64,000 nt of DNA from Escherichia coli (GTDB lineage Bacteria; Pseudomonadota; Gammaproteobacteria; Enterobacterales; Enterobacteriaceae). The notes beneath the pieces were generated by a model. The model was not told the DNA's origin. It ran no database searches and saw only the letters and a list, made by a program, of their open reading frames with translations. The DNA lies in NCBI RefSeq assembly GCF_003334785.1, contig NZ_QOWV01000002.1, one strand, 5' to 3'. A program made the position numbers and the translations under genes. Positions 29,844-30,027 of this stretch are shown one piece after another; positions within the stretch are counted from its first letter, which is position 1, and every line of letters begins with the position of its first letter.

Positions 29844-30027
29844 GCCGGATGCGACGCTTGCCGCATCTTATCCAGCCTACGGGATTGCACATGTAGGGCG
29901 GATAAGGCGTTCACGCCGCATCCGCCAGTGGCGCGGTGCAATTGCCGGATGCGACGCTTGCCGCGTCTTATCCAGCCTACGGGATTGCACATGTAGGGCG
30001 GATAAGGCGTTTACGCCGCATCCGCCA
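29844..30027. repeat. BIME: two tandem ~99-bp units, each a pair of inverted REPs, inside the eut operon between eutG and eutH
   Basis: unit gccggatgcgacgcttgccgc(a/g)tcttatccagcctacgggattgcacatgtagggcggataaggcgtt(c/t)acgccgcatccgcca occurs twice. Confidence 0.85.

Follow-up and report, generated by a model that had tools for sequence, protein, structure and literature searches.

The 216-nt non-coding gap between eutG and eutH in the stretch of DNA analysed here (64,000 nt, hereafter the window) holds what is, with near certainty, a BIME-2 element: four REPs in the order Z2, Y, Z2, Y, arranged as two 100-nt units and forming the allele found in K-12. On balance, we favour the view that this K-12-type BIME-2 is transcribed as part of the eut mRNA and exerts a modest, context-dependent tuning of expression, rather than acting as a hard boundary. 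That its effect on the ratio of upstream to downstream expression would amount to 2-fold or more we put slightly below an even chance. The array itself is an ordinary element of an already known kind, and its anatomy is not unusual.

Architecture and family of the eutG–eutH array

The eut operon occupies the + strand of the window from about 22.3 to 37.2 kb. The ORFs flanking the gap were identified with equivalog models as EutG upstream (NF011998, 888 bits) and EutH downstream (NF011665, 874 bits), and profile models placed EutJ, EutA and EutB ORFs to either side of this pair. The TAA stop codon of eutG lies at 29839-29841 and the ATG start codon of eutH at 30058, both on the + strand, which gives a gap of 216 nt (29842-30057), the size reported in a preliminary description of this DNA. 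The same description called the operon otherwise tightly packed, which holds for most junctions but not for all: gaps of 106 nt (eutM–eutN), 45 nt (eutK–eutR) and 38 nt (eutD–eutM) are present as well, and the junctions beyond these three and eutG–eutH overlap or are separated by at most 20 nt.

The gap carries 1.85 tandem copies of a 100-nt unit. Tandem Repeats Finder delimits the repeat at 29843-30027 (period 100, 1.9 copies, 97% matches, score 356), and an independent repeat search recovered an 88-nt direct repeat of 97% identity at 100-nt spacing, together with the expected inverted-repeat arms. Tandem repetition had been proposed earlier with a unit of roughly 99 bp; the repetition stands, and the period is corrected to 100 nt.

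Within each unit, a Z2-type REP and an inverted Y-type REP are separated by a linker of 12 nt, and a linker of 15 nt follows the Y REP; all coordinates are given here on the + strand. REP 1 (Z2-type, 29843-29880) begins 2 nt past the eutG stop codon, its stem starting at 29844; it reads TGCC...CTAC on the transcribed strand, with its GTAG foot on the minus strand, and departs from the locus consensus by two changes, GCCGCATC and CCAGCC. A short head-to-head linker of 12 nt in the S-type position (GGGATTGCACAT, 29881-29892) leads to REP 2 (Y-type, 29893-29927), which reads GTAG...GCCA and whose stem, GGCGG/CCGCC, is a compensated variant of the consensus GCCGG/CCGGC. The 15-nt tail-to-tail linker (GTGGCGCGGTGCAAT, 29928-29942) joins unit 1 to unit 2, in which REP 3 (Z2-type, 29943-29980), a second copy of the 12-nt linker, again in the S position (29981-29992), and REP 4 (Y-type, 29993-30027) complete the array. 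Before eutH there follows the short, original, A-rich spacer of 30 nt (30028-30057), with stop codons in all three frames (AATAAATAACAACTAA) and with the eutH Shine–Dalgarno sequence GGGAG at 30045-30049, from which the ATG lies 8 nt further on.

Consensus searches that allowed up to three mismatches found the Y-type pattern at 29893-29927 and 29993-30027 with 0 mismatches each, and the Z2-type pattern at 29843-29880 with 2 and at 29943-29980 with 1, against 0.00 chance matches expected for either pattern (100 shuffles). The four consensus REPs alternate in orientation, bearing out the earlier claim of two tandem units of paired inverted REPs.

REP/BIME sequences are the best-known and commonest repeat family of E. 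coli. Members of the BIME-2 class are built of Z2 and Y REPs, each REP being set apart from its inverted partner by a short linker, and they occur as tandem copies in numbers that depend on the strain (PMC3333891). At eutG–eutH, Y and Z2 REPs stand in opposite polarity; they are 35 and 38 nt long and are imperfect palindromes, with internal mismatches in the stems of their folds; a GTAG/CTAC foot is present on all four; and the unit recurs in 1.9 copies here and as 1-5 units in other E. coli. The linkers of the array, compared by length with those of BIME-2, are short at 12 nt and 15 nt. Compared with the family in the Gilson/Bachellier/Hofnung nomenclature (PMC3333891), the alternation of Z2 and Y, the GTAG/CTAC feet, the imperfect palindromes, the short length of the head-to-head linker, the tandem repetition, the strain-variable copy number and the extragenic position are all shared, and nothing essential differs. 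Particular to eut are the locus-specific compensated GGCGG/CCGCC stems of the Y REPs and the CCAGCC mismatch in both Z2 copies of the window allele. Architecture and consensus matches fit BIME-2, and the tandem BIME that the preliminary description recognized inside the eut operon is thereby upheld.

The Rfam model naRNA4 (RF02564) also matches the array on the + strand, scoring 71.8 bits where the gathering score is 59.5, and the matched stretch (29896-29977) is the tail-to-tail pair of Y, linker and Z2. That model was built from a BIME-2 called REP325, and the match shows membership in the REP unit family, not a nucleoid function. REP325, which lies between yjdM and yjdN, resembles the eut array in its 100-nt Z/Y unit, in its polarity relative to transcription and in its position between co-transcribed genes. 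It differs in having 12 palindromic units against four in eut, a linker of about 17 nt against 12 nt, and a place in a two-gene operon with a dispensable downstream gene, whereas essential pathway enzymes and an activator lie downstream of the eut array. Function has been measured for REP325; the eut array is known from its sequence and predicted folds.

REP copies elsewhere in the window, located by consensus search and blastn-short, lie at 447-481, 5108-5187, 16449-16504, 41811-41845, 51733-51769 and 52807-52841. These six places hold single REPs or one pair, leaving the eutG–eutH array as the sole multi-unit BIME in the window; no other REP-family copy was found in the eut operon.

Variation of the junction in E. 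coli and other genera

The gap is identical, base for base, to that of K-12 MG1655 and W3110, and a comparison of window positions 21821-41821 with W3110 (NC_007779.1) gave 6 differing positions in 20 kb. The CPZ-55 prophage, which sits between eutA and eutB in MG1655, is absent from both the window and W3110, and the eut operon of the window is intact.

The query matched in all 5,426 complete genomes, from whose ranking we drew 60 evenly spaced genomes for a survey of alleles, checking uncertain cases by fetching the loci. Two units were present at eutG–eutH in 24 of the 60 and one unit in 20 of the 60; three units were seen in 3/60 and four or more in 5/60, with one 4-unit and one 5-unit case verified. 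Four sampled genomes of the 60 carry a decayed single unit in a 99-nt gap (the O157:H7/O55:H7 type), three (about 5% of the 60) carry an unrelated 169-nt GC-rich, boxC-like element instead, and one of the 60 has no eutGH. An empty site was found in none of the 59 eut-carrying E. coli of the sample, all of which have some structured element at the junction. Copy number spans 1 to at least 5 units, and the gaps of natural alleles range from 99 nt to 578 nt.

Units within a strain share private substitutions: in one strain all five units carry ACAGGATT, and one Escherichia species has GGTGG/CCACC stems. Units of the same strain are closer to each other than to units of other strains, which points to local amplification; the same copy-number variation and local amplification have been described for BIME-2 in general (PMC3333891).

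Two observations concern individual alleles. The 169-nt GC-rich replacement element, as found in E. coli ETEC4077, begins GTCCCCTCGCCCCTTTGGGGAGAGGGTTAGGGTGAGGGG... and contains in its middle a motif similar to the tail-to-tail linker of the BIME (GCGCCGGTGCAA); we take it to resemble the boxC repeat. In E. coli FG92-1 the matched span is 39 nt longer than the query, the extra length falling within the eutH part: eutH is annotated there with 1,266 nt against 1,227 nt elsewhere, and the gap has its normal 216 nt.

Beyond E. coli, species-representative genomes with EutH were scanned once, which yielded the junction in 48 loci. In several Citrobacter it is a bare spacer of 27 nt, in which the original short eutG–eutH spacer is kept free of REPs. 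Gaps of 32-48 nt occur in Morganella, Buttiauxella, Pluralibacter gergoviae and others, mostly with a small GCCTG...CAGGC hairpin. Gaps of 119-123 nt with a REP pair are found in many Citrobacter and in Pseudocitrobacter, gaps of 170-216 nt with Klebsiella-type REPs in Klebsiella, and gaps of 116-578 nt with the same BIME-2 as E. coli in Escherichia species. Where the small GCCTG-loop-CAGGC hairpin occurs (Morganella, Buttiauxella, Pluralibacter gergoviae), it precedes the eutH ribosome-binding site by about 12 nt in gaps of 45-48 nt, with a stem so nearly invariant that pair counts are uninformative.

Salmonella eut had been expected to lack this BIME. When the two commonest S. enterica EutG alleles were traced to their contigs, the gap of subsp. 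enterica proved to be 119 nt long and to hold, from the eutG stop onwards, a Y-like REP joined to a Z-like REP by a 15-nt linker; in subsp. diarizonae the gap is 67 nt long and contains one REP. The expectation therefore fails for the REP pair, which is present at the same junction, and what Salmonella lacks is amplification in tandem and the arrangement seen in E. coli. The REP pair of Salmonella enterica and of the Citrobacter youngae/werkmanii group shares with the E. coli array the junction, the abutment on the eutG stop and the preserved eutH ribosome-binding site, and differs in being a single tail-to-tail pair in a 119-nt gap that is not tandemly amplified. Its order and linkers differ as well, so that this pair and the E. 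coli array are not simple orthologs. REPs or other structured elements occupy the junction in Escherichia, Salmonella, most Citrobacter and Klebsiella, and the type of repeat has turned over.

The hairpins themselves show signs of being kept. Among 18 distinct Y-type REPs of the eutG–eutH junction, with REP325 added, 95.4% of stem cells are paired, and three pairs show double (compensatory) changes, amounting to 15 cells across strains and genera. Neither the pairing nor the number of double changes was reached in any of 500 shuffles, and slid registers were only 26-59% paired. The pattern indicates that the Y hairpin is maintained, and selection at the RNA level and recognition of the DNA by the REP-associated transposase would be equally compatible with it.

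This variation bears directly on the possibility that the array is a neutral or selfish passenger, placed by REP transposase and recombination at an insertion-tolerant junction and exerting no selected effect on eut expression. Insertion would be tolerated at eutG–eutH because these genes do not overlap in translation and the inserts leave the eutH ribosome-binding site in place. The spread from one to five or more units, the decayed O157:H7/O55:H7 unit, the replacement element and the bare Citrobacter spacers all sit well with such an origin, as do the resemblance of units within strains, a mark of local amplification as in BIME-2 generally (PMC3333891), and the lack of protein-level polarity in W3110 described below. 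A passenger accounts less readily for the structured element in 59 of 59 eut-carrying E. coli sampled, for the different REP families at the same junction in Salmonella, Citrobacter and Klebsiella, and for the compensatory changes that preserve hairpin pairing, even though the last would equally serve transposase recognition. We regard this explanation as possible but doubtful.

Predicted folds and expression across the junction

The RNA of the array is predicted to be highly structured. A region of 241 nt has a predicted folding energy of -101.9 kcal/mol (z = -3.9). Folded singly, the hairpin of REP 1 is predicted to be the weakest of the four (-10.8 kcal/mol), those of REP 2 (z = -5.2) and REP 4 reach -20.9 kcal/mol each, and that of REP 3 reaches -16.6 kcal/mol; the pair of Y, linker and Z2 at 29896-29977 is predicted to form one long hairpin of -46.4 kcal/mol.

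Signals of transcription initiation or termination were sought in the same region. No intrinsic terminator (a GC-rich hairpin followed by a U-tract) is present in 29842-30057, the sequence after the last hairpin being A-rich, and the scan found no promoter-like site in or near the gap. The array has no C>G skew (GC skew 0.00 to +0.05, with 58 G and 56 C), and no C-rich, G-poor, unstructured region of the kind that characterizes Rho-dependent terminators occurs in its highly structured RNA. The gap thus does not qualify as an intrinsic terminator, for want of a U-tract, or as a classical Rho loading site, for want of a C>G skew, and an internal promoter was likewise rejected. REPs without C>G skew can still be partly Rho-dependent.

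Effects of REPs on expression depend on context, and reporters with inserted REPs often show no stabilization. At REP325, expression of the downstream gene falls 8-10-fold, in part through Rho, and the upstream mRNA is stabilized, and REP-separated tandem gene pairs across the genome show upstream-biased expression with wide scatter (bioRxiv 10.64898/2026.03.23.713779). The malE–malF REP pair, according to the account of Newbury et al. 1987 in PMC6061677, shields the upstream cistron from 3′ exonucleases. The general premise of the preliminary description, that intra-operon BIMEs can stabilize upstream mRNA or attenuate downstream genes, agrees with this literature, REP325 doing both.

Protein abundances for these genes come from K-12 W3110, which has the identical gap, on ethanolamine plus B12 (relative iBAQ, EutQ = 100; PMC11334477). 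Relative to EutQ at 100, EutM stands at 96, EutL at 39, EutB at 37, EutE at 27, EutC at 24, EutD at 10, EutK at 8, EutG at 7 and EutN at 1, and induction is 110-fold for EutB and 85-fold for EutG (PMC11334477). In abundance, the downstream proteins EutB, EutC and EutL match or exceed the upstream proteins EutD, EutE and EutG. With no drop in protein level or induction across the junction, any attenuation would be small or offset by translation efficiency. The malE–malF stabilizer, which likewise consists of intercistronic REPs in a polycistronic mRNA, differs in this respect: a gradient from upstream to downstream was measured there, and none is seen among the Eut proteins of W3110.

In the explanation that we favour, a BIME-2 would have entered a once-short eutG–eutH spacer, spreading and changing in copy number through the REP-associated transposase and recombination. 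The array would be transcribed within the long eut mRNA from the promoter upstream of eutS and would fold into very stable hairpins. By analogy with REP325, these may block 3′-to-5′ exonucleases, so that decay or termination products ending there would protect the eutS–G segment; the 216 untranslated, pause-prone nucleotides may cause some Rho-dependent loss of transcription before eutH; and the first hairpin, 2 nt past the eutG stop, may hinder terminating ribosomes and lower the output of EutG. Most transcription would reach eutH–R.

The free range from one to five or more copies, the replacement alleles and the REP-free Citrobacter argue against a tightly selected quantitative role. We find it improbable that the number of BIME units, or in other genera another structured insert, serves as an evolvable dial for the share of transcription begun upstream of eutS that extends into eutH–R. 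Were it such a dial, copy number would tune the gain of the EutR positive feedback as well as the proportion in which lyase and shell proteins stand to the enzymes encoded upstream, and lineages would differ in induction threshold or in growth speed on ethanolamine in the gut.

Another reading confines the effect to EutG: the stop-proximal hairpin would stall ribosomes, leading to mRNA cleavage and tmRNA tagging, and the downstream genes would be unaffected. A REP that begins less than 16 nt past a stop codon can reduce translation of the gene before it (Liang, Rudd and Deutscher 2015, as summarized in PMC12306157), and here the stop ends at 29841 and the REP stem starts at 29844, a 2-nt distance well inside that limit. 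A REP abuts the eutG stop in all BIME alleles of E. coli, in Salmonella and in Citrobacter, and EutG is low in W3110 (7 against 27 for EutE), a level that is compatible with a stop-proximal REP effect and does not demonstrate one. The hairpin next to the stop is, however, that of REP 1, at -10.8 kcal/mol the weakest of the four, and the ribosome-binding site of eutG itself, whose start overlaps eutJ, could explain the low protein level. A brake on EutG alone therefore seems to us tenable but rather unlikely.

A role at the DNA level is improbable. The array might act as a site of gyrase binding or cleavage, or as a topological insulator under strong induction of the roughly 15-kb operon. References cited in PMC3333891 report BIME-2 elements as DNA gyrase targets and REPs as insulators of transcription-induced supercoiling, and the mid-operon position would suit such a function. 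REP325, however, was found by Hi-C and imaging to have no chromosome-organizing role (bioRxiv 10.64898/2026.03.23.713779), and the variable copy number and the replacement alleles at eutG–eutH also weigh against it.

The preliminary description had gone further and proposed that the BIME divides the operon into separate expression blocks, eutS–G and eutH–R, which in its strong form would mean that most transcription ends after eutG. The 8-10-fold reduction downstream of REP325, an element of the same family, and the 216 nt left untranslated lend this some plausibility. The eut array has four palindromic units against the 12 of REP325, with REP 1 weak, and offers neither a promoter-like site from which a second block could be expressed nor a U-tract or C-rich Rho loading site at which the first could end. 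EutBC, the first enzyme of the pathway, and the activator EutR are encoded downstream, and to be induced they need transcription that starts at the promoter upstream of eutS and reads through (PMC8565329). Together with downstream proteins that are not lower than upstream ones, and with similar induction of EutB and EutG across an identical gap, this requirement makes a strong split of the operon very unlikely, and the block model is correspondingly weakened.

A gene within the gap, either for an naRNA4-type nucleoid-associated small RNA or for a 66-codon protein (29842-30042), is so improbable as to be set aside: the naRNA4 match, although above the gathering score, is a cross-match of a model that corresponds to a Y-linker-Z2 BIME unit and hence is matched by any BIME-2, and the proposed role of naRNA4 in nucleoid compaction was itself not reproduced (bioRxiv 10.64898/2026.03.23.713779). 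The 66-codon frame opens with an ATG directly after the eutG stop (TAAATG), closes with 15 nt left to the eutH start codon, and was also considered as a translational bridge across the array. It spans the array only in alleles with one or two units; in longer alleles a stop in unit 3 cuts it off, and the boxC-like allele and one long allele lack it. This behaviour is a mechanical consequence of composition, given the 100-nt (3n+1) period, and the bridge was rejected.

Practical meaning and other sites in the operon

In work on bacterial microcompartments, the eut operon serves both as a model and as an engineering chassis. For cloning or refactoring of eut, it matters that the eutG–eutH spacer carries a recombination-prone 100-nt tandem repeat, which may affect the yield of EutG and how upstream and downstream genes are balanced. 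The alleles with one to five or more units, together with the REP-free Citrobacter junctions, provide a ready-made series in which the influence of REP unit number on read-through in a long operon can be tested. As a discovery the element has small value, being unchanged in K-12.

Many 670-residue proteins from read-assembly sources combine EutJ-type and EutG-type domains. Since eutJ and eutG overlap by 11 nt, these probably stem from frameshifts or from assembly and not from true gene fusion.

Two further intergenic sites came out of the scan of the operon. The eutM–eutN gap (26009-26114, 106 nt), the second largest in the operon, contains a hairpin at 26016-26041 that is the best terminator-like site of the whole eut scan, with a 10-bp stem of 6 GC pairs followed by TCTCTCCTTTTTCATTTT; the RNA of this gap has a predicted energy of -43.5 kcal/mol (z = -3.4). 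It could be a partial attenuator or stabilizer after eutM, an idea suggested by the relative abundances in W3110 of EutM (96), EutN (1) and EutE (27), and it is a better candidate for a step in expression than the BIME. In the eutK–eutR gap (36148-36192), a perfect 12-bp hairpin at 36157-36186 (GCCGGGTGT...ACACCCGGC; predicted -23.6 kcal/mol, z = -4.6), with no U-tract, stands just upstream of eutR, the gene of the autoregulated activator.
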